Shown: positions 259 to 58,798 of the stretch, in pieces
Position numbering within the stretch: position 1 is the first letter of the stretch
How the letters are laid out: every line of letters begins with the position of its first letter
NCBI GenBank assembly: GCA_963830365.1
Contig: CAWHMU010000036.1
Coordinates: 64,884 to 128,883, forward strand
Source: an uncultured Chlamydiae bacterium
GTDB taxonomy: Bacteria; Chlamydiota; Chlamydiia; Chlamydiales; Parachlamydiaceae
Direction of reading: 5' to 3'
Length of the DNA: 64,000 bases
Notes under the pieces: generated by a model
What the model saw: only the letters and a program-made list of their open reading frames with translations
The model's database searches: none
What the model was told of the DNA's origin: nothing
Program-made: the position numbers and the translations under genes

Positions 259-973
259 GGGGAAAAGGGCATAAAAAGGGAGCTTCGTCAGGCGTCTGGC
301 CGAAGAAACCGTTGGTGTCGTGGTTGCCCAAGACCGGCAGGATGGGCACCAGGCGTCCGTCAGGGGTTACCATCGAAGTTTCCCAGGCCATAAGCCAGTC
401 CAGCCAGCCAGCGAATTTCTGTTTGGTCGGCAGGTTGAGCAAATGCTGCATCCAGCTGGGGAATAGGTGGGCGGTCTTATCCGCCGCATAGGCGATATCG
501 CCGCCCACCAAAGCAAACAAAGGGCCGGTCCTGGCTGCCGCCCGGTTGGTGGCGCGCAAGATGTCGATCGTATCGTGATACATGTCGCCGCCGGCCACGA
601 AATGGATGGGGTCCTGCAAGATGGCCGGCATGGTCTGGAATTTGTAGATATGCTCGGCGGATTTTATACGGAAGGCGTAATCCGTGGCCGGCAGCAGGTT
701 GGTGAGTTCGACGGTATGGATGAGATATGGGGTATCCAGAGGTATCGGTGCCTGCGAGCCTGTAGCCTGCAGCCAGTCGGGAGCGCTCTCTTTCCTATAT
801 TCCACGACATCCGCGCTGTCATCCAAGGGCGTCAGCCAGCAAATCGTCATGGTGCTTTCGGGGCTGCGCTGCCATGTCAGATAGACAGCTGCCGGCTTTT
901 CGCCTGCGGCGTAACCGGCAGCTGCTGTCAGCAGCAGTAAAAGCAGAAATAAAGAACGTGCCGCTTTACCCAT
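227..973 (-). CDS. Secreted metallophosphoesterase (purple acid phosphatase-like), N-terminal part; frame breaks near A5 run 273..277
   Basis: Signal-peptide-like N-terminus (MGKAARSLFLLLLLLTAAAGYAAG). Metallophosphatase motifs GGDMYHD, GGDIAY and VLGNHD are present. The tail after ..DEAPF is nonsense, whereas the other frame reads YALFPMPGLQGY. Confidence 0.7.
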   Translation of the reverse strand: MGKAARSLFLLLLLLTAAAGYAAGEKPAAVYLTWQRSPESTMTICWLTPLDDSADVVEYRKESAPDWLQATGSQAPIPLDTPYLIHTVELTNLLPATDYAFRIKSAEHIYKFQTMPAILQDPIHFVAGGDMYHDTIDILRATNRAAARTGPLFALVGGDIAYAADKTAHLFPSWMQHLLNLPTKQKFAGWLDWLMAWETSMVTPDGRLVPILPVLGNHDTNGFFGQTPDEAPFLCPFPHAGAAGLSGA

Positions 974-38250: not shown

Positions 38251-38550
38251 GTGAAAATGAGCCGAACAAGAAAAAAATATCCCCCAGAATTTAAAGTCAA
38301 AGCCGTGCTTGAGATTTTGAAGGGAGAAAAGACTGCAAGTCAATTATCCGGTGAACTGGGAGTGCATCCTATCGTGTTGTCGGAGTGGAAAAAACACTTT
38401 TTATCAACTGCCACAACTGTATTTGAAAAACCGAGCAAGATGACTGGGACAGCACAGGAAGTTAAAGAAAAGGCAGAACTTTTCGAGCAAATCGGACGTC
38501 TTAAAATGGAGGTGGAGTGGCTTAAAAAAAAGTTAGGATGTTTGACTTAA
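38251..38550 (+). CDS. IS3-family transposase OrfA (HTH)
   Basis: KKYPPEFKVKAVLEILKGEKTASQLSGELGVHPIVLSEWKK plus a leucine-zipper-like C-terminus: the classic IS3/IS911 OrfA. Confidence 0.9.
   Translation: MKMSRTRKKYPPEFKVKAVLEILKGEKTASQLSGELGVHPIVLSEWKKHFLSTATTVFEKPSKMTGTAQEVKEKAELFEQIGRLKMEVEWLKKKLGCLT
38526..38532 (+). other. Programmed -1 ribosomal frameshift heptamer A AAA AAG (OrfA to OrfAB)
   Basis: In the orfA frame the codons read ctt aaa aaa aag. orfB is in the -1 frame and overlaps orfA. This motif is the standard IS3-family slippery site. Confidence 0.75.
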
Positions 38551-39380
38551 ATTCTCGACGACTTCTAATAAAGCCAGATCATAAGAAGTTGTCGCTATCA
38601 AGTCAGTGTCATTTGCTTGGAATGTCACGATCTGGGTTGTATTATAAGGCCAAACAGCCCAACGAGGAAGATTTGGCACTCATGCGGGCTATTGATGAAC
38701 AATATCTTCAAACTCCCTTCTATGGAAGAAGACGGATGACGATAGCAATGAGAGCTCAAGGTTTTTTTGTAGGAGGAAAAAGGATTCGAACGGCGATGCA
38801 GACAATGGGTTTAGAAGCAATCTATCCCAAGCCCAATCTGAGTGCGGCAAATAAGGAGCATAAAAAGTTTCCTTACCTACTAAGAGGGATTGTAGTAGAT
38901 AAACCCGATTTGGCATGGGCTGCAGATATCACCTACGTTCCTTTGTTGAAAGGATTTGGATACCTTTTTGCGATCATCGATTGGTTTAGCAGGTATGTGA
39001 TCGAATGGGAACTTTCGAATCTGCTGGATGCGGAATTTTGCATTAATGCATTAGAAAGAGGGCTTTCTCGAGCTAGTCCTGAGATATTCAACACAGACCA
39101 AGGAGTTCAATTCACCTGCTGTCGGTTTGTAGAGAGATTAGAAGCAGGCGGAGTCAGAATCAGTATGGATGGAAAAGGCAGAGCCCTTGATAATGTGTTT
39201 ATTGAAAGGCTCTGGAGAAGCGTGAAGTATGAAGAGATTTATCCAAAAGGGTATGAAAGCTTAAAAGATGTCCGTAATGGACTTAAGAGTTATTTTAAGT
39301 TTTACAACGAGAGCAGGCCACACCAAGGACTGGGTTATAAAACGCCTGCGGAGGTGTATTTTTCTAGGCAGAGCCTTTAG
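38538..39380 (+). CDS. IS3-family transposase OrfB (rve/DDE integrase core)
   Basis: DDE context WAADITYV, IFNTDQGVQF and FIERLWRSVKYEE. Probably expressed as an OrfAB fusion. Confidence 0.9.
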   Translation: MFDLNSRRLLIKPDHKKLSLSSQCHLLGMSRSGLYYKAKQPNEEDLALMRAIDEQYLQTPFYGRRRMTIAMRAQGFFVGGKRIRTAMQTMGLEAIYPKPNLSAANKEHKKFPYLLRGIVVDKPDLAWAADITYVPLLKGFGYLFAIIDWFSRYVIEWELSNLLDAEFCINALERGLSRASPEIFNTDQGVQFTCCRFVERLEAGGVRISMDGKGRALDNVFIERLWRSVKYEEIYPKGYESLKDVRNGLKSYFKFYNESRPHQGLGYKTPAEVYFSRQSL

Positions 39381-39567
39381 GAAAAGGGGGCAAGCCCCCT
39401 TACCCCCCTTCCGCCTTCGTTGGACTTGGATTACCTTGATTTTTAAAGGAACTTGAGGGGGCAAGCCCCCTCAAACTCCCCCTTTAGCTGCAAGAACAAC
39501 AAAAACTTGAGGTTATTAGCTTAACTTTTCCCATTTTTTGTCTAGACAAAGGGGACCACTTTAGGGT

Positions 39568-39687
39568 GGGTCGTTCTGACTGATCGACAAATGTACCCAT
39601 CAAACGAAATCGTCAAATGGGTCGTTCTAAGTGATTGAGGGGGTGGGTCGTTCTTGGTGATCGACAAAAGGGTCGTTCTAAGTGATA
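39568..39687 (+). repeat. Copies 3-6 of the 18-bp direct repeat GGGTCGTTCTnnGTGATy
   Basis: 39568..39585 GGGTCGTTCTGACTGATC; 39619..39636 GGGTCGTTCTAAGTGATT; 39645..39662 GGGTCGTTCTTGGTGATC; 39670..39687 GGGTCGTTCTAAGTGATA. All are in the same orientation as copies 1-2. Confidence 0.9.
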
Positions 39688-40196
39688 TTTACCATTGGGC
39701 AATGAAAATATTGCAATATGATGGTATATGGGATGAAAAGGTATATGAAAAATTGAAGTGGGTTTACAGCTATGAAAAACAAATCAGGATATGGAGTCAA
39801 TGGGTTGAGATTGGAAAACACATCCGAGATCAAGTGAGGAAAAGTGGTTTTGGTTGTGATACAGAAGAATTAATTATTGAACGCTTATCACCATTACCCA
39901 TGGCTGAATCATCACAACAACTTGCATGCGATCTTCTTGATTTTGTATCTAAAGAATCTTGTCAGCTTCCATCAGGTGTGACAGCACCTGGGTCAACAGA
40001 GGTCATCGAATCATTATTCGGATATTTTAAACATGCAAAGAACGGTTTGTGGGATGGAAATGGAGGAATGGGACGCCTCATTTTAACTATGGCAAGTCGG
40101 GTCGGGGAATTAACTTCAGAACTTGTAGAGAACGCTCTTAACAATATTCGCCAAAGTGAGCTTGCGCAATGGTTCGCAAATTGCTATTCCAGATAG
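39654..40196 (+). pseudogene. Possible C-terminal fragment of a DDE transposase
   Basis: GSTEVIESLFGYFKHAKNG resembles the (T/S)N..IES.n...K block that carries the DDE glutamate in several IS families. The ORF start lies inside the repeat array, and no N-terminal catalytic region is present. Confidence 0.3.
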
Positions 40197-40397
40197 TCGT
40201 TTAAATGTTTAATCATGGAAGACTTATGGACACGTACAATTTAGACGTCTTTGGAGACTTTTTGACAGCCCAGGTCGGGCTTGACATTATGGCATTCTCT
40301 TTTCAATCACATATATTTATAAAATATTTTAATTAAATTAAAAATAACGATCTTTTATTTATAAAAAATTAAGTCGAAGTGTAATTTCATGTTTTGA

Positions 40398-41027
40398 TTA
40401 GATGGATCGCAAGATAGTGCGACTCCATTGATTGCCAAGATGCAGGACAGGTCTGCTAGTGGTTGTATTGAATAGAGTCATTAGTCTTATTTTGGTATCT
40501 GTTAACCAGACCCTAACGTTCGATCCATTTATTGACATATCCGGATAATGTCGAACTTTCTTATATGCCCAGTTGATACCATTATAAGCTGATTGAGCAA
40601 GTGAGGGTAACGCTAATATCACAGCTGCAATGCTAACAATATGGCGAGGATGCCAAGGATTAACGACAAAAATAGTATTAGGTCCACACACTTGTTTGAG
40701 TTGAGAGGTAGAAAAAAAACATCCTATCAATGAGGATATGATGAAAACCCCTGGATAAGAAACACCTGCACTCAAAATCAGTGAAATCTTAGTGCAAACA
40801 ATCATTACGTTATTGGCTACTTGAATCCATTTAGGATAGTCTGAACAAACATCGGTTGTAATTTCATGATCTCTTGCTAGATGATAGATGTGATAAATCT
40901 CAACTAGTCCAAACACAAAGGTTACGGTGCCGGTGATGTTTTTTACACCTTCCTTGACTAGCGGCTGATTGAGTAAGCGAACGGAGTCATTAAATAGATA
41001 TTTCGCTGCTCCTGAAATTGAATTCAT
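40398..41027 (-). CDS. Hypothetical membrane protein with bilobed hydrophobic segment (Inc-like topology)
   Basis: Hydrophobic pairs TGTVTFVFGLVEIY and VMIVCTKISLILSAGVSYPGVFIISSLIGCFF. A good SD (AAGGAAG) lies 5 nt upstream of the ATG. The ISL3 element begins 17 nt upstream of the ATG. Confidence 0.5.
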   Translation of the reverse strand: MNSISGAAKYLFNDSVRLLNQPLVKEGVKNITGTVTFVFGLVEIYHIYHLARDHEITTDVCSDYPKWIQVANNVMIVCTKISLILSAGVSYPGVFIISSLIGCFFSTSQLKQVCGPNTIFVVNPWHPRHIVSIAAVILALPSLAQSAYNGINWAYKKVRHYPDMSINGSNVRVWLTDTKIRLMTLFNTTTSRPVLHLGNQWSRTILRSI

Positions 41028-41044
41028 GACACTTCCTTATTTAT

Positions 41045-42371
41045 GGCTCATCGTGCAAATGAGTACCTAACTTTGTGTAAACTATAGAGACGTAATTTAA
41101 AATACTCCATATCTCGAAATCCGTAAGCTTGGCGCTTCATTGTTTTAATCTTGTTATTGATCCCCTCAGTCTTTGCATTGGTGATGGGATGTTTAAAATA
41201 GTTTACCAATCCTTGCCAATGCCTAAGCAGGGTTTTTCCTGCCTTCTCCAGCTCATGTATCCCTGACTCCATAGTATCCATTATCCACCAAGCAAGAAAT
41301 CTAGCCCCCTCTTTCACCGTCTGTTTAGACCAAAATTGACGAATTTGCTCCTTCATTGCATGAGCCAAGGCTATCGGTTGATTTACTTCTAAAAGGCATT
41401 CCAAACTACTTTTTCTCTTAGAATCAAGTTTTTCATAGTTCCTTAAAAGTAAAAATCTCATTCCTTTAATGACTCTTAAGCCAACTTCATTGCATTTTGC
41501 CTGCTGATCTCTCCGGATTTCCTCGATTGCCGTATTCAATAATGCCACGACATGAAATCGATCAAATACTATGTCAACATCCGGTAAATGATTTTGTACA
41601 GCTGATGCATAGGCTGCATTCATGTCCATAGCCATCGCTTTGAGCTGTAAAGCCTTTTCCTTCAACTCTAAGAGGAATGGGATTACGCTTCCCATGCTTT
41701 TACCTTCTACGGCGTGAATGATTTCTCCTGTCTCAAGGTTGATGAAAATCGTCATGTATTCATGCCCTTTTCGAATACTAAACTCATCGATGCCCACGTA
41801 TCGAAGGGATGTAAAATCGAAACTCTTATACTCCCTCTGAAGATATGCTTTATGTATACCCTTCACGAGACTCCAAGAAACCCCAAGGAATTTTGCCACA
41901 TGTTCTATTGTTGCAAACCCCATAAGATTAATGACAAACTTCTCAAAGGAAGTGGTATAACGCTTTCTGGGCTTGACAAAGGGAATCGGGGGCCACCAAA
42001 CGTGTAGGCAATTGACGCATTGAAGACGATGTAGCCGCAGGTTGAGAAAAGCCATTTTGTTCCCTAGAGGGGCCATGCGAAGCCTACGTAACTTCAGTCC
42101 CTTCGATATGGATTCACTGTTCCCACAGCAAGGACAAAGTGTTTTTTTGGGTTGAAGAAGCGCCTCGAAAAGTATTTTGTCTTCATGATATTCACGATTC
42201 AGGACTTGAACATCTTCGATCTGATTGGTATGGTAAAGCAGTGAAGCAGGCATATTAAATCTCCTTTTTTGTCGAAGGATTTAATAAATTGTCTGCTTCT
42301 CTTTTTCAACTAGTTAAACTAGCCCCATTTCTTCGTTCTCCTCGGCTAGGTACTCATTTGCGCGATGAGCC
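41045..42371 (-). mobile_element. ISL3-family insertion sequence (1327 bp) with perfect 8-bp target-site duplication TTATTTAT
   Basis: 24-bp IRs GGCTCATCGTGCAAATGAGTACCT (41045..41068) and AGGTACTCATTTGCGCGATGAGCC (42348..42371). TTATTTAT is present at 41037..41044 and 42372..42379. One transposase ORF ends inside the IR. Confidence 0.92.
41048..42253 (-). CDS. ISL3-family transposase
   Basis: N-terminal zinc-finger (CPCCGN...CVNC), DDE region (YVGIDEFS.., AMDMNAAY.., TNAKTEGINNKIKTMKRQAYGFRD). Confidence 0.9.
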   Translation of the reverse strand: MPASLLYHTNQIEDVQVLNREYHEDKILFEALLQPKKTLCPCCGNSESISKGLKLRRLRMAPLGNKMAFLNLRLHRLQCVNCLHVWWPPIPFVKPRKRYTTSFEKFVINLMGFATIEHVAKFLGVSWSLVKGIHKAYLQREYKSFDFTSLRYVGIDEFSIRKGHEYMTIFINLETGEIIHAVEGKSMGSVIPFLLELKEKALQLKAMAMDMNAAYASAVQNHLPDVDIVFDRFHVVALLNTAIEEIRRDQQAKCNEVGLRVIKGMRFLLLRNYEKLDSKRKSSLECLLEVNQPIALAHAMKEQIRQFWSKQTVKEGARFLAWWIMDTMESGIHELEKAGKTLLRHWQGLVNYFKHPITNAKTEGINNKIKTMKRQAYGFRDMEYFKLRLYSLHKVRYSFAR

Positions 42372-42648
42372 TTATTTATCATACTGAAACACAAAAAATG
42401 GGATTCATGCGTTGTGTAGCATATGCTAATCTCTCGATCCGCTATTATCCGATTGCTATGGGCACTAAAGTGGTCCCCTTTGTCTAGACAAAAAATGGGA
42501 AAAGTTAAGCTAATAACCTCAAGTTTTTGTTGTTCTTGCAGCTAAAGGGGGAGTTTGAGGGGGCTTGCCCCCTCAAGTTCCTTTAAAAATCAAGGTAATC
42601 CAAGTCCAACGAAGGCGGAAGGGGGGTAAGGGGGCTTGCCCCCTTTTC

Positions 42649-43491
42649 CTAAAGGCTCTGCCTAGAAAAATACACCTCCGCAGGCGTTTTATAACCCAGT
42701 CCTTGGTGTGGCCTGCTCTCGTTGTAAAACTTAAAATAACTCTTAAGTCCATTACGGACATCTTTTAAGCTTTCATACCCTTTTGGATAAATCTCTTCAT
42801 ACTTCACGCTTCTCCAGAGCCTTTCAATAAACACATTATCAAGGGCTCTGCCTTTTCCATCCATACTGATTCTGACTCCGCCTGCTTCTAATCTCTCTAC
42901 AAACCGACAGCAGGTGAATTGAACTCCTTGGTCTGTGTTGAATATCTCAGGACTAGCTCGAGAAAGCCCTCTTTCTAATGCATTAATGCAAAATTCCGCA
43001 TCCAGCAGATTCGAAAGTTCCCATTCGATCACATACCTGCTAAACCAATCGATGATCGCAAAAAGGTATCCAAATCCTTTCAACAAAGGAACGTAGGTGA
43101 TATCTGCAGCCCATGCCAAGTCGGGTTTATCTACTACAATCCCTCTTAGTAGGTAAGGAAACTTTTTATGCTCCTTATTTGCCGCACTCAGATTGGGCTT
43201 GGGATAGATTGCTTCTAAACCCATTGTCTGCATCGCCGTTCGAATCCTTTTTCCTCCTACAAAAAAACCTTGAGCTCTCATTGCTATCGTCATCCGTCTT
43301 CTTCCATAGAAGGGAGTTTGAAGATATTGTTCATCAATAGCCCGCATGAGTGCCAAATCTTCCTCGTTGGGCTGTTTGGCCTTATAATACAACCCAGATC
43401 GTGACATTCCAAGCAAATGACACTGACTTGATAGCGACAACTTCTTATGATCTGGCTCTATTAGAAGTCGTCGAGAATTTAAGTCAAACAT
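42649..43491 (-). CDS. IS3-family transposase OrfB (copy 2)
   Basis: Identical to 38538..39380 except for one residue (K11E). Confidence 0.9.
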   Translation of the reverse strand: MFDLNSRRLLIEPDHKKLSLSSQCHLLGMSRSGLYYKAKQPNEEDLALMRAIDEQYLQTPFYGRRRMTIAMRAQGFFVGGKRIRTAMQTMGLEAIYPKPNLSAANKEHKKFPYLLRGIVVDKPDLAWAADITYVPLLKGFGYLFAIIDWFSRYVIEWELSNLLDAEFCINALERGLSRASPEIFNTDQGVQFTCCRFVERLEAGGVRISMDGKGRALDNVFIERLWRSVKYEEIYPKGYESLKDVRNGLKSYFKFYNESRPHQGLGYKTPAEVYFSRQSL

Positions 43492-43778
43492 CCTAACTTT
43501 TTTTTAAGCCACTCCACCTCCATTTTAAGACGTCCGATTTGCTCGAAAAGTTCTGCCTTTTCTTTAACTTCCTGTGCTGTCCCAGTCATCTTGCTCGGTT
43601 TTTCAAATACAGTTGTGGCAGTTGATAAAAAGTGTTTTTTCCACTCCGACAACACGATAGGATGCACTCCCAGTTCACCGGATAATTGACTTGCAGTCTT
43701 TTCTCCCTTCAAAATCTCAAGCACGGCTTTGACTTTAAATTCTGGGGGATATTTTTTTCTTGTTCGGCTCATTTTCAC
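43479..43778 (-). CDS. IS3-family transposase OrfA (copy 2)
   Basis: Translation identical to 38251..38550. The slippery heptamer is at 43497..43503 (minus strand). Confidence 0.9.
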   Translation of the reverse strand: MKMSRTRKKYPPEFKVKAVLEILKGEKTASQLSGELGVHPIVLSEWKKHFLSTATTVFEKPSKMTGTAQEVKEKAELFEQIGRLKMEVEWLKKKLGCLT

Positions 43779-44011
43779 CTCTTTTCTTAAAGAGGGTATT
43801 AGCTTAGACCATTGTCCAAATTTCCGGGACCATTATACACTTTGCTGAATTTTCTGATCTAAATTCAATGAATTTGCTATCGGGATAGGCCTGACATTCG
43901 CCATTGACAAGTCGATGCAGGGGAAAGCGGCGACAAGTCGCGCGCAGTGTTGGAGTAGAGAGGGTCTGCGACCCTTTGGCGGGGGATGATTAAGGGGGCT
44001 GGTGCCCCCTT

Positions 44012-44060
44012 GATTGCCTAAAACAGGAATCGAACCTGCGACCTGCGCGTTACGAATGCG
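44012..44060 (-). repeat. Distal att-type direct repeat: duplicated 3' part of tRNA-Thr (positions 28-73 plus 3 nt)
   Basis: 49 bp identical to 58624..58672 except one position (T at 44037 versus C at 58649). It is immediately preceded (43992..44011) by the hairpin AAGGGGGC-TGGT-GCCCCCTT, plausibly the original tRNA terminator. Confidence 0.9.
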
Positions 44061-44343
44061 GGGGAAGTCACGACAATCCAATATTAACCAGCCGCTTTGA
44101 GCATCATGATAGAGGGATTTTGCTTAAAATGCTATTGGATTTTATCGGATGTCGACGGTTGAATAGGTAAGCCGTTGCACCGCGATTGCACCGCCAAACA
44201 CAGATCAAAAGTTGGTGAGTGTTTATTACAGTTACATAAAAAAACAGCCTTTGTCCACCTTGGAAAAACATTTCAAACGAGGCCAATTTGAACCTTACCG
44301 TTACATCGCGTTACATAAATCAGGCCCAAAGGTAGAATGCTGT

Positions 44344-45051
44344 TTAATTAAATAAATCGCCATTTAAGGAATTGCTGGAATCAACCTTGTTTTGCCAATC
44401 TTTTTGGTTAATCCATGTACCTGCAAATTTAAGGTAGTCAAAATACGTTAATTCATTTTCTTTCAAGTCGCATGATTCGCACATTGCTGGCAAAGCAGCT
44501 TTAAATGAATTATAACGTTCTAAGATAGCAGTCTCGCCTGGTATTGTTTCCTTGGAGTAATGGTTAAGCCATTTTCTAATAACTCCAATCAATTTTTTTT
44601 TGTTATTCCGATGAAAAGATATATCTTGGCCGGCTATATCAGATAACATTTTCTGATAGCGATATTCTTGTTTATCTAAAATTAAACAATTTTTGTTGTT
44701 TTGCTGACTGTCACCGAATGCTTTTGCTCCAAGAAAGAGACCCAATTCAAGAGGCATATTAAATCGCGGTAAACCTGAATTTTTGCTTAATTCGATTCGA
44801 GATAGATCATGAATCCCAAAGCGACACTCACGGATTATTTGGGTGATTTTTTCAATTCGCACTTGCCCACTGTCATGGACCTCTTTCGAACAGCGAGGGG
44901 CAAAGCCACAATCGATTATTGAAAAAACCATTACATTAAATAATGGTAAATATTTCTTATCGAAAGGGCAATTGATGAAGACCTGATTATCATAGGTCGT
45001 CTCTCCAAATATGGTGGGAAATTTAGCTGCGCCATTTCCGTTTATTATCAT
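44344..45051 (-). CDS. Hypothetical protein with N-terminal TIR-like / nucleoside 2-deoxyribosyltransferase-like (flavodoxin-fold) domain
   Basis: QVFINCPFDKKYLPLF ... ECRFGIHDLSRIE...LPRFNMPLELGLFLGAK follows the pattern (beta1 vF.s.pF; ..aDls....N.N...ElG.a.g) that I recall for TIR-like/NDT-like nucleotide-processing domains. The C-terminal ~100 aa is unassigned. Confidence 0.5.
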   Translation of the reverse strand: MIINGNGAAKFPTIFGETTYDNQVFINCPFDKKYLPLFNVMVFSIIDCGFAPRCSKEVHDSGQVRIEKITQIIRECRFGIHDLSRIELSKNSGLPRFNMPLELGLFLGAKAFGDSQQNNKNCLILDKQEYRYQKMLSDIAGQDISFHRNNKKKLIGVIRKWLNHYSKETIPGETAILERYNSFKAALPAMCESCDLKENELTYFDYLKFAGTWINQKDWQNKVDSSNSLNGDLFN

Positions 45052-45185
45052 TTCTTTTTAGGGTCTGATTTTTTTGCCACAGCGTTTTTGACTGCTTTTT
45101 TGACATCATCTAATCTTAAATTACCTTTGTGGGCTATTGCCTTAGGGATTTTTACAGTCCTTGTTTCTTTTTTCTTTTCGCTCAT
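45048..45185 (-). CDS. Micro-ORF (45 aa, Lys-rich) translationally coupled to the TIR-like gene
   Basis: My own translation: MSEKKKETRTVKIPKAIAHKGNLRLDDVKKAVKNAVAKKSDPKKK. AAGGAA SD 6 nt upstream. Its TGA overlaps the downstream ATG (ATGA at 45048..45051). It is too short to appear in the supplied ORF track. Confidence 0.45.
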   Translation of the reverse strand: MSEKKKETRTVKIPKAIAHKGNLRLDDVKKAVKNAVAKKSDPKKK

Positions 45186-45433
45186 ACTTATTCCTTATGT
45201 GGATCTATATTTTTTTCAAAAGCCGATTGTTTAATTCGGTCATAGAATCATTCGACGCAATTGTTCTAAAATTGCTCGCGGTCAATTATTTGGTCAATTA
45301 TTTCTATAATTGCTTCCTTATTGCTCACGATCGCAATTGATGTATGAGGCGCCCCTTTGCCACGGCAAATATACTGAGCATTAGCTCCATGACCTTTGAT
45401 TTGGTCGCGGTAGGGGCATCTATAAGGCCAAAA

Positions 45434-45865
45434 TTATGTTGATGAGATTTCTTGCTGGGCTAATGAAAATAGACAGCCACGCAATCTTGCCTTATCGGAA
45501 AGTTTACTGCTGATTGATACAACTCTACCTTTTGAAGGGATTTCAGAGAAATCGATCAAACAATGAGATGGATCATTTACAGGAGTATTTAAAGGATCTT
45601 GTTGAATATGTAGGTCACCGATTTCCCTGATTTCTCCAACAGAAACACCCCATACACCAGAAGATGAAAGCTTTCTTTCTTCAGTATAAAGCCTATAAGC
45701 ATCTTCAGGAGAGGTTTTAGAATCGCGATTGACTGAAAGTTTGTTTTGATCTTTAAGAGTGGGCCTAAAAGCCTGGCTTGTGATTCTCCCTTCCTGAATC
45801 CATGCTGGGTGAACTTGACGTAGGAGGATTTCGTCTTCATCATCAAAAGTAGATTGAGTTGTCAT
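45434..45865 (-). CDS. Hypothetical 143-aa protein (toxin-sized), second gene of a coupled pair
   Basis: ATGA start/stop overlap with the upstream 390-aa ORF. Conserved-looking blocks LLRQVHPAWIQEGRITSQAFRP, LSVNRD and DPSHCLIDF. No motif that I can assign to a named family. Confidence 0.6.
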   Translation of the reverse strand: MTTQSTFDDEDEILLRQVHPAWIQEGRITSQAFRPTLKDQNKLSVNRDSKTSPEDAYRLYTEERKLSSSGVWGVSVGEIREIGDLHIQQDPLNTPVNDPSHCLIDFSEIPSKGRVVSISSKLSDKARLRGCLFSLAQQEISST

Positions 45866-47034
45866 CTTAAACGGGTCTCGAGTAAATCTTTTAGAAAATG
45901 TGATCCTTGTTCTGGAGCTAGAGGGTCATCTAATCGTAATTTTTCCTCTCTTATTTCTTCTCTTTTTGTATGAGTTGCTTGTAAAATAATAGTTTTTGTT
46001 GTGAATTCAAATAAGCAATTGACTTCCCAAAATCCGAATGACCACTCGGCTATAACGCTGTTTTCAGGAGAGGGATAAACAAATGGTGCTGGAATATCTG
46101 CAATTTTGAGCAGTTTTTCAATCCACTCCTTAGTATCACATAAATCCTGACTGTCAAATGCCAACCCCTCACCATCCAACCAGCCATTTTGATATTTCGT
46201 AAACTCATCTATACGTTTATTAGGGTTAGGAAAATAGTTTGGTTCACCGTTTCTAAAAATGGCAATGTGTTGGAGGCGTTCGATTTGAGCTATTGAACCA
46301 TCGGGTTGATATTTTGCGAGTCCAATTAGAGTAACAGATATTTCTTCTTTTTTATATTTTGACGCTAAATCTCTTAGAACAGTATCAAAAGTATCGCTTA
46401 GTGGGCCGATAATACGCTCTCCATCTCCTACCACAAGATTAAAGACACCGCTTTCCACCTCGAATCCAGATATTGCACCACTCAAATAGCAAATATCTTG
46501 ATATGATTTCTTATTTATGGATAGGACCTGGGATCGAATATCTCTTGAATATATTGGTGCATTATTTTTTCCAGGGATTTTCAGAGTAATTGTTTCATCT
46601 TGTTTTAAATGCTGGCCAAAACGACCGAACAAGGGAATAACTTTTTCTGGAAAATCATTAATGCCCACAGAGTTTTGTTTCACTTCATTCTGAAGAAAAA
46701 GGAGTTGTTCATTGATAAGATCTCTCGCTTGATCAAATTCATCATTTATCCAGCTTTCTTGATCATAGCTCCTTTCAAAAACAGGCACTGTACTACCAGA
46801 CTTAATTTCTGCTACTCCAACATTGAATCTAGATTCAAATTTTTTCGGGATTCGCACTTTATTTGGATTGTTTTTGAGATACAACTCTTTTGCAACTGCA
46901 ACAACGATATCTAGATAAGCAGTAAGATCAGGAAGAATCGGATATGCTAAAAAAGGAGTTGGACCATCAAATCTTCCACCTTTCAAAATCTGTTCTAAAA
47001 ATATTTGCTTTTTGGTTGTCATGGAGTAAAACAC
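45862..47034 (-). CDS. Hypothetical 390-aa protein, first gene of a coupled pair downstream of hsdR
   Basis: Long uninterrupted ORF starting 73 nt after the hsdR stop. No P-loop, nuclease or HTH motif recognised. The C-terminal block NGWLDGEGLAF...PAPFVYPSPENSVIAEWSF resembles a widespread uncharacterised W-D-G-x-G ... P-x-x-(D/E)-G-S-I-x-x-E-W module. Confidence 0.6.
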   Translation of the reverse strand: MFYSMTTKKQIFLEQILKGGRFDGPTPFLAYPILPDLTAYLDIVVAVAKELYLKNNPNKVRIPKKFESRFNVGVAEIKSGSTVPVFERSYDQESWINDEFDQARDLINEQLLFLQNEVKQNSVGINDFPEKVIPLFGRFGQHLKQDETITLKIPGKNNAPIYSRDIRSQVLSINKKSYQDICYLSGAISGFEVESGVFNLVVGDGERIIGPLSDTFDTVLRDLASKYKKEEISVTLIGLAKYQPDGSIAQIERLQHIAIFRNGEPNYFPNPNKRIDEFTKYQNGWLDGEGLAFDSQDLCDTKEWIEKLLKIADIPAPFVYPSPENSVIAEWSFGFWEVNCLFEFTTKTIILQATHTKREEIREEKLRLDDPLAPEQGSHFLKDLLETRLR

Positions 47035-56288: not shown

Positions 56289-57413
56289 TTAATGTGTTAT
56301 TTGTGGCTGATATCGATGATCGAATTCAACTGGTTGAGAAAGGAAGGTTTTAAAAGTAATTTCACCTTGTGTTTGGTAAAAGTCGAGTTTTTGTATGGTA
56401 CGCCTTAAAACTCGATATAAGCTCTCGTCGGTACTTTGAAAAATTCTAGACCTTGGTTGTGCACCTGGAATTTCAGAAAGAGCTTTTAAAAAGTTCCATA
56501 TTGTTTCTGAACACGGCACAGGTAGCCAATCGAATATGGTCGGAAGAGAAAGTGAAGGAAGGTTCTTATCAGAGGGGTTCTCTAAAGCCTTTATAGGAAG
56601 GTTGAAAAGGTCATTCAAAGCTATGGGAAGCCGAAGACGGGAGCTCGTCAGGCATATCCAGCACATTCCAAGGGTTTCGGCTGCTCCCAATTTGGCATTT
56701 TGCCTACCGCATATTACTGTATTAACTAGTTCACGGATAATATCAGCTGCATTCATAATATAGATTGGAAAAACAGTTGGTGGAATTTTCCGGGCAATCT
56801 GTCCACAAGGAACCTCTTGGAATTCTGAAGTTAATGTTCCTGTTTTTACTTCTTTCAAAGTGGTGATTCTTCGAATTTCCATGTCTTCCGGGAAAATCAG
56901 TTCCAAAAATGCGATTTGTCTTTTGGAGATCGACTGGCGGAGGTGATTCAGAAAGCCGCTCAAGGCGCGTTCCCAAAAAAAGAGAAGCTTCTCTTTGTTT
57001 TCTACAATGTCTCGCAACCTGATGATATAATCGTACAGTGTTTCTCCTTTGTTAGGCTCCTCAAGATGATAATCAGCAAAGTCCACAGGATTAAGAAAAT
57101 ACTCGATATATTCGCTGTCAGGGGTAGCATTCTTTTCAATGTCCGTTTGCCAGTTACTATAGTGTGTAGAAGCCAAGCTTCTAGATGCTTCCGATTGATA
57201 GGGAATCTTAGGTAAAGGTGCCATCAAAACCGTTCCGATATCATCGGTGCCATAGATCCAACACCGAGCTAGTTCCTTTCGCCAGTTATCTTCCGATACA
57301 GGAGAAAAATCAGGATTAAGAGCCCGTGTGGTATCATAAAAGTGTTGTTTCTTTTCTAGGTCTGATTGGAATTGAAGTAAGATTCTTGTTAATCCATCAA
57401 GGTTGTATTTCAT
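56289..57413 (-). CDS. Hypothetical protein overlapping the integrase 3' end by 17 nt
   Basis: 374-aa ORF directly downstream of int. No recognisable catalytic motif. Confidence 0.5.
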   Translation of the reverse strand: MKYNLDGLTRILLQFQSDLEKKQHFYDTTRALNPDFSPVSEDNWRKELARCWIYGTDDIGTVLMAPLPKIPYQSEASRSLASTHYSNWQTDIEKNATPDSEYIEYFLNPVDFADYHLEEPNKGETLYDYIIRLRDIVENKEKLLFFWERALSGFLNHLRQSISKRQIAFLELIFPEDMEIRRITTLKEVKTGTLTSEFQEVPCGQIARKIPPTVFPIYIMNAADIIRELVNTVICGRQNAKLGAAETLGMCWICLTSSRLRLPIALNDLFNLPIKALENPSDKNLPSLSLPTIFDWLPVPCSETIWNFLKALSEIPGAQPRSRIFQSTDESLYRVLRRTIQKLDFYQTQGEITFKTFLSQPVEFDHRYQPQITH

Positions 57414-58476
57414 TTTTCCCTCTCAATAAGCGGTTTTCAATGGATTCACCGATAAAACGTGTTGCTTGTGCATCTAGGTGGGAATAGTGGTCGGTCATGC
57501 TGGCTGTAGCGTGCCCGAGTTGGGAACGGAGCTGCTGTCCGCTAGCACCCAATTGCCCACCAATAGAACAGAAGTGGTGTCTAAGTCCATGGAAAACGAA
57601 ATTATTGATTCCCGCGCGACTTAAAGCAGATTGCCATGCCTTCTTGATGTCGAGTCTTCCAAAGGTCGTTTTGCTGGCAAAAACCAAAGTCTTGGTTATA
57701 TCACGGATAATATAAAGGCGTTGAAGTTCTTGGATGACACTGTCAACTAGTCCCACACGGCGCGGGCGGCCATTTTTAGAGTCTTTGATATGGGCGAATC
57801 GATTTTCAAAATCGATGGAATCCCACGTTAAGTTTAAAATCTCACTTTTTCTGGCACCGGTCGTGATTGCCATTAATACGATGCAATAGAGGTATGGGTT
57901 TAGGCTTTGCCGGCATGCTTGAAGGAGTCGGTTCTCTTCATCATTGATGAGGGCGCGCCGTTCTTTCGGTTTGGTTTTTAACTGGAGCAAATTTATGCAT
58001 GGATTTTCATCGATCCAGCGAAGATTTTTGCATGCATATCTGAAAGCGCCGCCGAAAGTGGCAAAATATCGATTGACTGTTGCAGGATTGCGGCGCCCAC
58101 CTCGACTTGTAGGCGTCTCGGCTAGTTTTTTGCGCTCTTGTAAAAGTAGTTCTGGTGTGATGTACATCAGTGCATAATCACCAAGCTTTTCCCGGAAGTA
58201 ATTTAACTGTCGAATGGTGTCTCTGGCTGCTTTATGATGTCCGATCACAGCATCCTGGATGTAAACGTCGATGAGGCCGGCAACAGTCTTATTCTGTTTT
58301 GTTTGATTAGAGGTGTATTTGCCTCGCTTAATCTGTTGCTCGGTATCGTGGGCCCAATCATCCGCTTCTTGCTTGCGATCGAAATGTTCACAAACAGTGG
58401 GGTGACCTTTTATACGGATGACGGCGCGCCAAACTTTGGTGCCATTATTATTTGTTCTTTGGTAGATAGATGCCAT
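57397..58476 (-). CDS. int: Tyrosine-type site-specific integrase
   Basis: Catalytic residues in context: TTGARKSEILNL (R), HGLRHHFCS (H-x-x-R), MTDHYSHL (Y). N-terminal SAM-like arm domain. Adjacent to the tRNA 3' end. Confidence 0.92.
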   Translation of the reverse strand: MASIYQRTNNNGTKVWRAVIRIKGHPTVCEHFDRKQEADDWAHDTEQQIKRGKYTSNQTKQNKTVAGLIDVYIQDAVIGHHKAARDTIRQLNYFREKLGDYALMYITPELLLQERKKLAETPTSRGGRRNPATVNRYFATFGGAFRYACKNLRWIDENPCINLLQLKTKPKERRALINDEENRLLQACRQSLNPYLYCIVLMAITTGARKSEILNLTWDSIDFENRFAHIKDSKNGRPRRVGLVDSVIQELQRLYIIRDITKTLVFASKTTFGRLDIKKAWQSALSRAGINNFVFHGLRHHFCSIGGQLGASGQQLRSQLGHATASMTDHYSHLDAQATRFIGESIENRLLRGKNEIQP

Positions 58477-58623: not shown

Positions 58624-58672
58624 GATTGCCTAAAACAGGAATCGAACCCGCGACCTGCGCGTTACGAATGCG
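58624..58672 (-). repeat. Proximal att-type direct repeat (within and just 3' of tRNA-Thr)
   Basis: Partner of 44012..44060 (48/49 identical). Confidence 0.9.
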
Positions 58673-58699
58673 CTGCTCTACCAACTGAGCTATTTAGGC
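58627..58699 (-). tRNA. tRNA-Thr (anticodon CGU)
   Basis: The minus strand reads GCCTAAATAGCTCAGTTGGTAGAGCAGCGCATTCGTAACGCGCAGGTCGCGGGTTCGATTCCTGTTTTAGGCA. It has a 7-bp acceptor, D arm GCTC/GAGC, anticodon loop TTCGTAA and T arm GCGGG-TTCGATT-CCTGT. It closely resembles E. coli thrW as I remember it. CCA is not encoded. Confidence 0.9.
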
Positions 58700-58798
58700 A
58701 TAGATAGAGTAGTGTAGGGTATTGTTGTTTTTTGGCCAATAGCAAGTTGTGTAGTATGAGTCTTCACCTTAATTCGCCGGGCTGTTAGGCTGGCGCAT

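Follow-up and report, generated by a model that had tools for sequence, protein, structure and literature searches.

The gene pair and its translation signals

We describe a pair of overlapping genes in a 64,000-nucleotide stretch of DNA (hereafter the window; contig CAWHMU010000036.1, positions 64,884 to 128,883 of the forward strand) from an uncultured Chlamydiae bacterium of the Parachlamydiaceae. A basic microprotein of 45 residues is encoded immediately upstream of a 235-residue protein whose predicted fold resembles TIR domains and nucleoside 2-deoxyribosyltransferases (NDTs), and we refer to the two genes together as the module. A first-pass annotation, made from the sequence alone, had placed both open reading frames (ORFs), their strand, the ATGA overlap between them and an AAGGAA Shine-Dalgarno sequence exactly where we find them, and all of the sequence strings that it quoted are present in the DNA. 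The features of the pair are listed below (AF2, AlphaFold2; HMM, hidden Markov model).

44344..45051, minus strand: TIR-like gene, 235 aa (ORF list; also called by an independent gene caller on the public contig)
45048..45185, minus strand: micro-ORF, 45 aa, MSEKKKETRTVKIPKAIAHKGNLRLDDVKKAVKNAVAKKSDPKKK (ORF list; also called by an independent gene caller on the public contig)
45191..45196, minus strand: Shine-Dalgarno AAGGAA, 5 nt before the micro-ORF ATG at 45185 (read from the sequence)
45048..45051, minus strand: ATGA stop/start overlap of the micro-ORF and the TIR-like gene (read from the sequence)
45069..45161, minus strand: conserved partner motif, microprotein residues 9–39 (alignments, HMM consensus, adjacency counts)
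44563..44985, minus strand: TIR/NDT-like core, residues 23–163 (AF2, Foldseek, weak PF10137 match)
44740..44769, minus strand: signature PRFNMPLELG, residues 95–104 (invariant columns; DNA read directly)
44353..44535, minus strand: family-specific C-terminal helical hairpin, residues 173–233 (AF2 and alignment)

On the minus strand no separate Shine-Dalgarno sequence comparable to AAGGAA precedes the start of the 235-residue protein, and this absence, together with the ATGA overlap, fits termination–reinitiation and suggests that translation of the TIR-like gene is coupled to that of the micro-ORF. Among related loci in which the small gene lies upstream, the microprotein stop falls −14 to +20 nt from the TIR-like start codon in 37 of 47, an estimate that takes the nearest start codon and is therefore biased towards short distances. 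A promoter and terminator scan returned no minus-strand promoter or terminator around the module. The 248-nt gap that follows the neighbouring PDC-M32B gene (see below) holds a tandem repeat, AATAATTGACC-A-AATAATTGACC (45280–45302, minus strand, 95–117 nt 5′ of the micro-ORF start), which may serve as an operator or represent two −35-like TTGACC boxes, the latter with no correctly spaced canonical −10.

A conserved motif in the microprotein accompanies the TIR-like gene

All three of the closest homologues of the TIR-like protein (58–62% identity) have a related small ORF directly upstream, with products reading MATTKRAIRTVQLPKIASARGKGKVTLAAAQRAVKKV..., MSMVRKKAVREILLPKVVLSRGKGKVSLTAARRAVKKV... 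and ...MTTKKRAVRRSVKLPKVAAARGKGKVRLSAAKKAVRKF...; a BLASTP search with the window microprotein gives E = 2e-6 against the microprotein of locus L005 and 1e-4 against that of L002 (L numbers designate related loci). The pattern read from the small upstream ORFs of 80 loci is R-x-[VI]-K-x-x-P-[KR]-x-G-x-[VIL]-[ST]-x-x-x-h-x-x-A-[VI]-x-x-V, and the motif of ~30 residues to which it belongs has the consensus RKRTIKSPPKRGSVSRSQIRRAVKKV (iterated-HMM consensus RKRTIKSPPKRGSVSRSQIRRAVKKVLAERKA). In alignments the motif runs from an extended basic stretch through Gly21 into an amphipathic helix, with R9, G21 and A31 nearly invariant. The window microprotein has an isoelectric point (pI) of 10.4, with 16 Lys and Arg and 5 Asp and Glu; 100 of its relatives have a median pI of 10.7, seven of them being acidic (pI < 7). 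An AF2 model of the monomer has a single helix at residues 25–39 (predicted local distance difference test, pLDDT, ~82) and is otherwise extended (overall pLDDT 70.8), which is the look that would be expected of a peptide that folds on binding.

An HMM iterated on 80 GTDB loci, scored against their ~23,000 six-frame segments, places the motif immediately adjacent to the TIR-like gene and on the same strand in 65 of the 80 at E ≤ 1e-3 (45 upstream, 20 downstream) and in 70 at E ≤ 1; by eye, most of the remaining loci hold a degenerate version. There are seven non-adjacent matches, five of which lie within the same adjacent long ORFs and one (L050) just upstream of the counting window, so that the poribacterial locus L044 has the only truly distant site in the 80 loci, a second significant match at 776–859 (plus strand), ~4 kb upstream of its TIR-like gene. 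Because the clade of the window was in the seed, we rebuilt the HMM without it; the micro-ORFs of L002 and L003 then score E ~1e-5, and the window micro-ORF outscores every other six-frame segment in the 64 kb (E = 0.13, 9.6 bits; runner-up 6.2 bits). RefSeq holds both genes as adjacent hypothetical proteins on Sphingomonas plasmids, a profile search for further motif-bearing proteins returned only 100 tiny unnamed proteins, and none of the 270 proteins retrieved is a natural fusion of the microprotein with the TIR-like domain, the only weak HMM matches in them falling on the enzyme's own helices (DSGQVRIEKI, AIKAVRDWL) at non-significant E-values and not being used. The two-component arrangement proposed by the first-pass annotation is borne out by this conservation of the micro-ORF beside the homologues (motif adjacent in 65–70 of the 80 loci): the pair is a genuine two-gene module, in which both genes are real and co-occur across phyla.

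We regard as effectively excluded the possibility that the micro-ORF arose by chance or is no more than a leader without a translation product, with the 235-residue protein acting alone. Short Lys-rich ORFs arise readily in AT-rich DNA, and the leave-clade-out E-value for the window micro-ORF is a weak one, but the motif is conserved at the protein level across phyla of unrelated DNA composition, in the same place and on the same strand; the micro-ORF has its own Shine-Dalgarno sequence and its ATGA coupling to the next gene; and the same motif stands inside larger, real proteins.

A second short motif, [ST]GRF[VI] (e.g. GRDAKTGRFISRKEAERRK), recurs beside the ~30-residue motif, on either side according to lineage (downstream ORFs of L084, L027, L012, L066 and L078; upstream ORFs of L010, L060, L065, L087 and L088).

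The downstream gene belongs to a large, divergent TIR-like family

Among the candidates scored, more than 7,900 proteins match the 235-residue protein at E ≤ 1e-3, and a 50%-identity representative library contains 3,532 matching clusters (885 at E ≤ 1e-30). At least 592 loci of the family are found in the representative genomes of 185,579 GTDB species, spread over Acidobacteriota, Planctomycetota, Poribacteria, Gemmatimonadota, Verrucomicrobiota, Pseudomonadota, Nitrospirota, Chlorobiota and Clostridia, among others. The typical member has ~205 residues and is 50–60% identical to the window protein over the whole conserved length; residues 1–19 and about 220–235 of the window protein are not conserved, and its ~16-residue tail is peculiar to it. 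An alignment of 120 sequences has 19 invariant columns (including R65, H81, D82, P95-R96-F97-N98-M99, E102, G104, K120, S137, D138, G141, D143, W161 and W213), and since the window protein has all 19 residues, its gene is intact.

The sole Pfam match of the window protein is to PF10137 (CAP12/Pycsar effector TIR; E = 0.0025, 18.2 bits, cut-off 24.7), residues 43–141 aligning with profile positions 17–111 of 119. The same profile is matched below threshold by 69 of the 120 family members (best E 3.7e-4) and at threshold by none; no other TIR or NDT model of Pfam is among the weak matches of the 120, and PF13271 (DUF4062) is absent both from these and from the Pfam matches of the window protein at E ≤ 1. 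PADLOC-DB v2.0 contributes a weak match to a TIR effector model (E = 0.017), which is not a system match, NCBIfam and PHROGs give no match for the module, and an exact look-up of its two proteins returned no names. We would class the family as a remote relative of the PF10137-type TIR that has so far gone unrecognised.

An AF2 model built from the 120-sequence alignment (pLDDT 86.6; predicted TM-score 0.84) shows a flavodoxin-like core at residues 23–163, in which five parallel strands (E) alternate with five helices (H): E23–27, H32–47, E51–53, H65–74, E78–82, H98–112, E121–126, H131–135, E143–146 and H151–163. Two long helices follow (173–193 and 203–233). The top Foldseek matches in the PDB are the TIR domains of the TIR-APAZ proteins of SPARTA (short prokaryotic Argonaute) systems, with the SfSTING TIR, AbTir (TMt 0.70), Cat1, plant and animal TIRs and a cyanobacterial NDT (root-mean-square deviation, rmsd, 2.7 Å over 111 columns) among the further ones; the BFVD search puts first a TIR/WD40 protein, an entry named 'CD-NTase-associated protein 12/Pycsar effector TIR domain-containing protein' and a number of NDTs. 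At the level of fold the modelled core belongs to the TIR superfamily, in keeping with the TIR/NDT-like fold that the first-pass annotation had proposed from sequence patterns. The additional C-terminal part that it had noted is also present, at ~70 rather than ~100 residues, and proves conserved and helical (conserved stretch ~164–219, with P171, F183, P188 and W213 in the hairpin); the hairpin has no domain match in Pfam, NCBIfam or PADLOC.

In TIR and NDT enzymes a catalytic glutamate opens the helix that follows the third strand. The model puts E102, unchanged in 120 of 120 sequences, in the first turn of helix H98–112, which comes after the third strand; it is the candidate catalytic glutamate, an equivalence drawn from position and not from superposition. 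The N-x-x-x-E-L-G signature around it is one that we take to be common to the PF10137 consensus. A metal site formed by four conserved cysteines (C28, C48, C54, C122) was considered and dropped, since in the model these residues sit at opposite strand ends and a single metal cluster is unlikely. Three of the 50%-identity representatives (P0139, P0171 and P0127) carry an extra conserved C-terminal domain of ~100 residues (...GLSYMQ...LEYQEGSLDEHY.C...W...), which has no Pfam match in P0139 and P0171, the two that were scanned.

The motif is portable between partner proteins

The genes stand in the opposite order in Poribacteria, where the motif, MARxRxVKxPPKRGKLTxxQxxRAVxKV, forms the N-terminus of the gene directly downstream of the TIR-like gene. 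The partners into which it is built are:

DncV-like nucleotidyltransferase: L045 (scanned; PF21654, 30.7 bits, cut-off 24.9); L038 and L054 by sequence similarity
ThsB-type TIR: L042 (PF08937, 75 bits)
URI/GIY-YIG-like: L028, L035 and L061 (weak Pfam matches)
DUF2188: L049 and L016 (PF09954, 55–76 bits)
Tetratricopeptide repeat (TPR) array: L044 (seen in the sequence, not by Pfam scan)
~600-aa protein with no Pfam match: L037 and L067
Tail with a TGRF[IV] motif, no Pfam evidence: several loci

Elsewhere the motif is the C-terminus of an upstream protein, namely a GIY-YIG-like protein in L019, a 128-residue protein on a Bradyrhizobium plasmid and DUF2188 proteins in two IMG/VR contigs; the connection of DUF2188 with defence is reportedly credited by other papers to Burroughs and Aravind (2020). 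In a small clade the TIR-like domain carries a covalently attached SEFIR/TIR_2 domain at its N-terminus, and a motif-bearing ORF lies near none of the three readable loci of this kind, as against 65 of the 80 unfused loci (hypergeometric estimate, p ~0.009).

The motif is thus modular and portable between partner proteins. Its fusions, together with the motif-free SEFIR/TIR_2 fusions, argue that it is the piece connecting a partner to the TIR-like protein and that the window holds the minimal form, with a partner that is little more than the motif. The same fusions count towards an adaptor or activator role, in which the TIR-like protein would be a hub or effector, the motif would tether a sensor or co-effector, and the partner would activate the enzyme; nucleic-acid binding by a basic tail could, for example, nucleate TIR oligomerisation as in SPARTA. 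We consider such a role rather unlikely. It would account for the fusion of the motif to sensor, generator or effector domains (TPR, DncV-like nucleotidyltransferase, ThsB_TIR, URI/GIY-YIG-like, DUF2188) and for the covalent SEFIR/TIR_2 fusions that have no motif gene, and it accords with the fact that some tails are histone H1-like and rich in Lys and Ala, and with SPARTA TIR domains as the best structural matches. The window microprotein, however, is the motif with short Lys-rich ends and nothing more, and in some clades the tails are acidic (the 7 of 100 microproteins given above).

The fusions also bear on a reversal of roles, whereby the TIR-like protein, comparable to the SLOG domain of ThsA, would have no catalytic role and would sense a ligand or serve as antitoxin, sequestering the motif, and the microprotein or the fused domain would be an effector released on signal. 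Typical effectors are indeed found among the motif-fused domains (URI/GIY-YIG-like, TIR, DUF2188), and where SEFIR/TIR_2 is fused on, the TIR-like domain stands C-terminally, as sensor domains usually do. We nonetheless judge this quite improbable: a hydrophilic 45-residue peptide is an unlikely killer, the invariant Glu stands in what would be the canonical catalytic position, and the small gene lies upstream, the position typical of an antitoxin or regulator.

The module lies at the tip of a tRNA-integrated island

A ~14.7-kb island integrated at a tRNA gene, with the main features given below, has the module as its final gene pair (R-M, restriction–modification).

58626–58700: tRNA-Thr(CGT), island boundary
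57397–58476: tyrosine integrase, followed in the island by a 374-aa ORF and a primase-like Zn-ribbon/AAA_25 protein
After the primase-like protein in island order: HsdM, HsdS and HsdR (type I R-M)
45434–47034, minus strand: 390-aa and 143-aa ORFs, PADLOC candidate PDC-M32A/B (2e-64 and 7e-40)
44012–44060 and 58624–58672: 49-nt direct repeat of the 3′ part of tRNA-Thr (48/49 identical)

With the tRNA-Thr gene and the 49-nt repeat as its bounds, this is the island that the first-pass annotation had taken the pair to share with the R-M system, at the distal tip. The 390- and 143-residue ORFs also match phrog_30544 and phrog_31579 (function unassigned) and have no Pfam or NCBIfam match. For 129 ORFs that flank related loci, the 25 commonest PADLOC families listed do not include PDC-M32, which gives no hint of the two pairs moving as a unit. 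The module is independent both of the PDC-M32 pair, as had been suggested, and of the type I R-M system.

Rfam recognises solely a degenerate tRNA fragment, at the 44012–44060 repeat, which is overlapped by a probably spurious 82-aa ORF (43833–44081). Past this repeat lies a nest of insertion sequence (IS) elements, including a composite IS at 38251–43778 that consists of two near-identical, inverted IS3-type copies (99-aa and 280-aa ORFs; 38251–39380, plus strand, and 42649–43778, minus strand). Between the copies are an ISL3-like transposase ORF of 401 aa (41048–42253, minus strand; named from the sequence, not scanned), a hydrophobic ORF of 209 aa (40398–41027, minus strand) and an ORF of 180 aa (39654–40196, plus strand).

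Related loci are distributed patchily and the module is horizontally mobile. The family is present on 17 PLSDB plasmids, in none of 50,697 phage records and on only 5 IMG/VR contigs; the module is carried as Tn7-like cargo in one context and has a restriction endonuclease directly downstream in another. A Lamassu-type (LmuB_C) gene or a toxin–antitoxin cluster lies beside the SEFIR fusions, and flanking ORFs match the mad2, PsyrA/ShosA, PglX, ThsB, capP, NACHT, AbiJ and Schlafen models. Upstream of the TIR-like gene, eight poribacterial loci have a gene for a protein of ~990 aa that is probably of the type IIG R-M kind. It lies within a few kb upstream in L025, L038, L040, L045, L054 and L084 (directly upstream in L038, L040 and L084) and is probably the source of the neighbour matches to PADLOC REase_MTase_IIG and Pfam Eco57I, echoing the R-M association in the window. 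One poribacterial genome, OZ246979.1, contains at least two full modules (L045 and L084). In L002, a gene for a microbial poly(ADP-ribose) glycohydrolase (PF10021; 6984–8225, minus strand) lies directly downstream of, and convergent to, the module of the closest homologue; this neighbour may be coincidental, though it is of note given a possible ADP-ribose link.

Comparison with known systems

The closest architectural analogue of the TIR-like protein is the DUF4062 core with a short AUX region, as in the 'TIR-like core + short AUX' defence proteins Evangelion and Swarozyc that were recently reported (bioRxiv 10.64898/2026.06.25.731849). In both, a short C-terminal region without a known domain follows a compact, divergent TIR-like core, and both occur on mobile elements. 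The DUF4062 proteins, however, are single genes with other conserved motifs, whereas the system in the window has a conserved second gene and no PF13271. PF10137 is the only Pfam family with a consistent sub-threshold match, which covers most of the core and is of the same fold class; unlike that family, the window protein scores below the cut-off and has its own conserved C-terminal hairpin and a conserved microprotein partner.

In contrast to the effectors of cyclic-oligonucleotide-based anti-phage signalling (CBASS) and Pycsar systems, the protein has no STING, SAVED or cyclic nucleotide (cNMP) sensor fused to it, its C-terminus being the ~70-residue helical hairpin, and no CD-NTase (cGAS/DncV-like nucleotidyltransferase) or pyrimidine cyclase is adjacent, the neighbours in the window being PDC-M32A/B, type I R-M and IS elements; a DncV-like nucleotidyltransferase stands beside the gene only in some poribacterial relatives. 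With Thoeris and SPARTA the module shares the TIR-like fold, SPARTA TIR domains giving the best PDB matches, and in some relatives the partner of the gene is a ThsB_TIR protein or DUF2188, the latter being listed as a putative Thoeris effector (bioRxiv 10.64898/2025.12.03.692087). There is, however, no PF08937 match, no ThsA-type effector, Argonaute or APAZ in the window, and the partner is a 45-residue peptide. Signalling of the Thoeris, CBASS or Pycsar type, in which the TIR-like protein would make or answer a nucleotide signal and the partner would be the matching effector or generator, could draw on the weak PF10137 similarity and on the poribacterial loci that pair the gene with a motif-bearing DncV-like nucleotidyltransferase or ThsB_TIR; we think it very improbable, as the window is without a cyclase, a ThsA-type effector or a fused nucleotide-sensor domain, and the microprotein stands alone in most loci.

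The fold is likewise that of NDTs (PF05014) and of the NDT-like effectors of retrons (8pqt, rmsd 2.7 Å over 111 columns; also 8qc0 and viral NDTs), with the candidate catalytic Glu at the start of the presumably equivalent helix, but there is no PF05014 profile match at E ≤ 1 and no retron reverse transcriptase or non-coding RNA nearby. Like type II toxin–antitoxin systems, the module consists of two small, co-directional genes that are adjacent, overlap stop to start (consistent with coupling) and occur on mobile elements, and its small upstream product is poorly conserved and largely disordered while the downstream enzyme is well conserved. Unlike in those systems, the microprotein has no known antitoxin fold or DNA-binding domain, and the motif is also found downstream of the TIR-like gene and fused to large domains. 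PADLOC-DB v2.0 has no defence-system match for the module and no match of any kind for the micro-ORF. The module would operate in the manner of a TIR-effector system or a type II toxin–antitoxin pair, yet it has no match at threshold to PF10137, ThsB, NDT or DUF4062 and no system match to any PADLOC model.

A proposed mechanism and its alternatives

We read the pair as a self-contained, mobile two-gene conflict module, of defence or toxin–antitoxin type, in which the microprotein docks on and restrains a TIR-like N-glycosidase; we put the probability of this at about one half (0.5). The TIR-like protein is a predicted N-glycosidase acting on NAD+ or a nucleotide, and we infer that the ~30-residue motif of the mostly disordered, basic microprotein would dock physically onto it. 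In the form found in the window, the microprotein would hold the enzyme in check. Infection or stress would lead to loss, titration or displacement of the microprotein, lifting the restraint, and the freed enzyme would deplete its substrate and so arrest the cell, in the manner of a toxin–antitoxin or abortive-infection system; the enzymatic activity, the direct binding, the direction of regulation and the defence phenotype are all putative.

The reading may be extended to the relatives, in which case the motif would be a portable docking tag, the TIR-like protein a common hub for CD-NTase, ThsB-TIR, SEFIR/TIR_2, URI/GIY-YIG nuclease, DUF2188 and TPR partners, and the window a tag-only form; this extension we put forward tentatively. 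A more extreme variant has the enzyme covalently modifying the tag at the nearly invariant Arg, e.g. by ADP-ribosylation. The adaptor or activator role set out above is the main rival to restraint by the microprotein, as it keeps the binding and reverses its sign.

A number of observations weigh against a restrained conflict enzyme. The fusion of the motif to large immune domains is better fitted by a docking or adaptor element than by a simple antitoxin, and an antitoxin fused to a nuclease or CD-NTase is, to our knowledge, atypical; no recognised antitoxin DNA-binding fold (ribbon-helix-helix, helix-turn-helix, AbrB or Phd) is found in the microprotein by Pfam, NCBIfam, PADLOC or AF2. Foldseek probabilities against the PDB are ~1.0 with E-values of only ~3e-3 (best 3e-3), TM-scores normalised to the query are ~0.45, and searching PDB sequences with either the protein alone or its family profile was unproductive. 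The protein reaches no TIR or NDT gathering threshold in Pfam; of the four models that the first-pass annotation had named for profile searches, PF10137 stops short (18.2 against 24.7 bits) and PF13676, PF08937 and PF05014 have no match at E ≤ 1, and the TIR model PF01582 is likewise unmatched. Identity of 50–60% across phyla is unusually high for a defence effector. The module has housekeeping neighbours in L002, L003 and L005, many immediate neighbours elsewhere are housekeeping genes too, and six Thermoanaerobaculia genomes carry it at a syntenic chromosomal position among such genes, while the defence enrichment around it, counted without a matched control, is suggestive only.

Several of these points would suit a housekeeping or accessory function, that is, an NDT- or LOG-like N-glycosidase or transferase of salvage or stress metabolism with a chaperone or nucleoid protein as its partner. 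The cross-phylum conservation, the Thermoanaerobaculia synteny, the neighbours in L002, L003 and L005, the similarity to the NDT fold and the near absence of the family from phages all agree with such a function, which we nevertheless hold to be improbable: the spread is patchy, with copies on plasmids, as transposon cargo and in integrase islands, the partner is fused to CD-NTase, ThsB_TIR and nuclease-like domains, and the SEFIR/TIR_2 fusions lie beside a Lamassu-type (LmuB_C) gene.

Significance

Enzymes with TIR domains have a central place in bacterial, plant and animal immunity. We found no account of this TIR-like family or of the motif in the searchable literature, and the module would add to that field a large TIR-like family (thousands of sequences in many phyla) missed by current Pfam and PADLOC models, a conserved microprotein of a size that automatic annotation sometimes skips, and a short peptide motif that apparently links the TIR-like protein to several immune domains. 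If docking is true, a ~30-residue peptide would be a simple handle on silencing or switching TIR-like effectors, and the docking-tag reading, if true, would reveal a modular way of building TIR-based immune systems that has not been recognised before.

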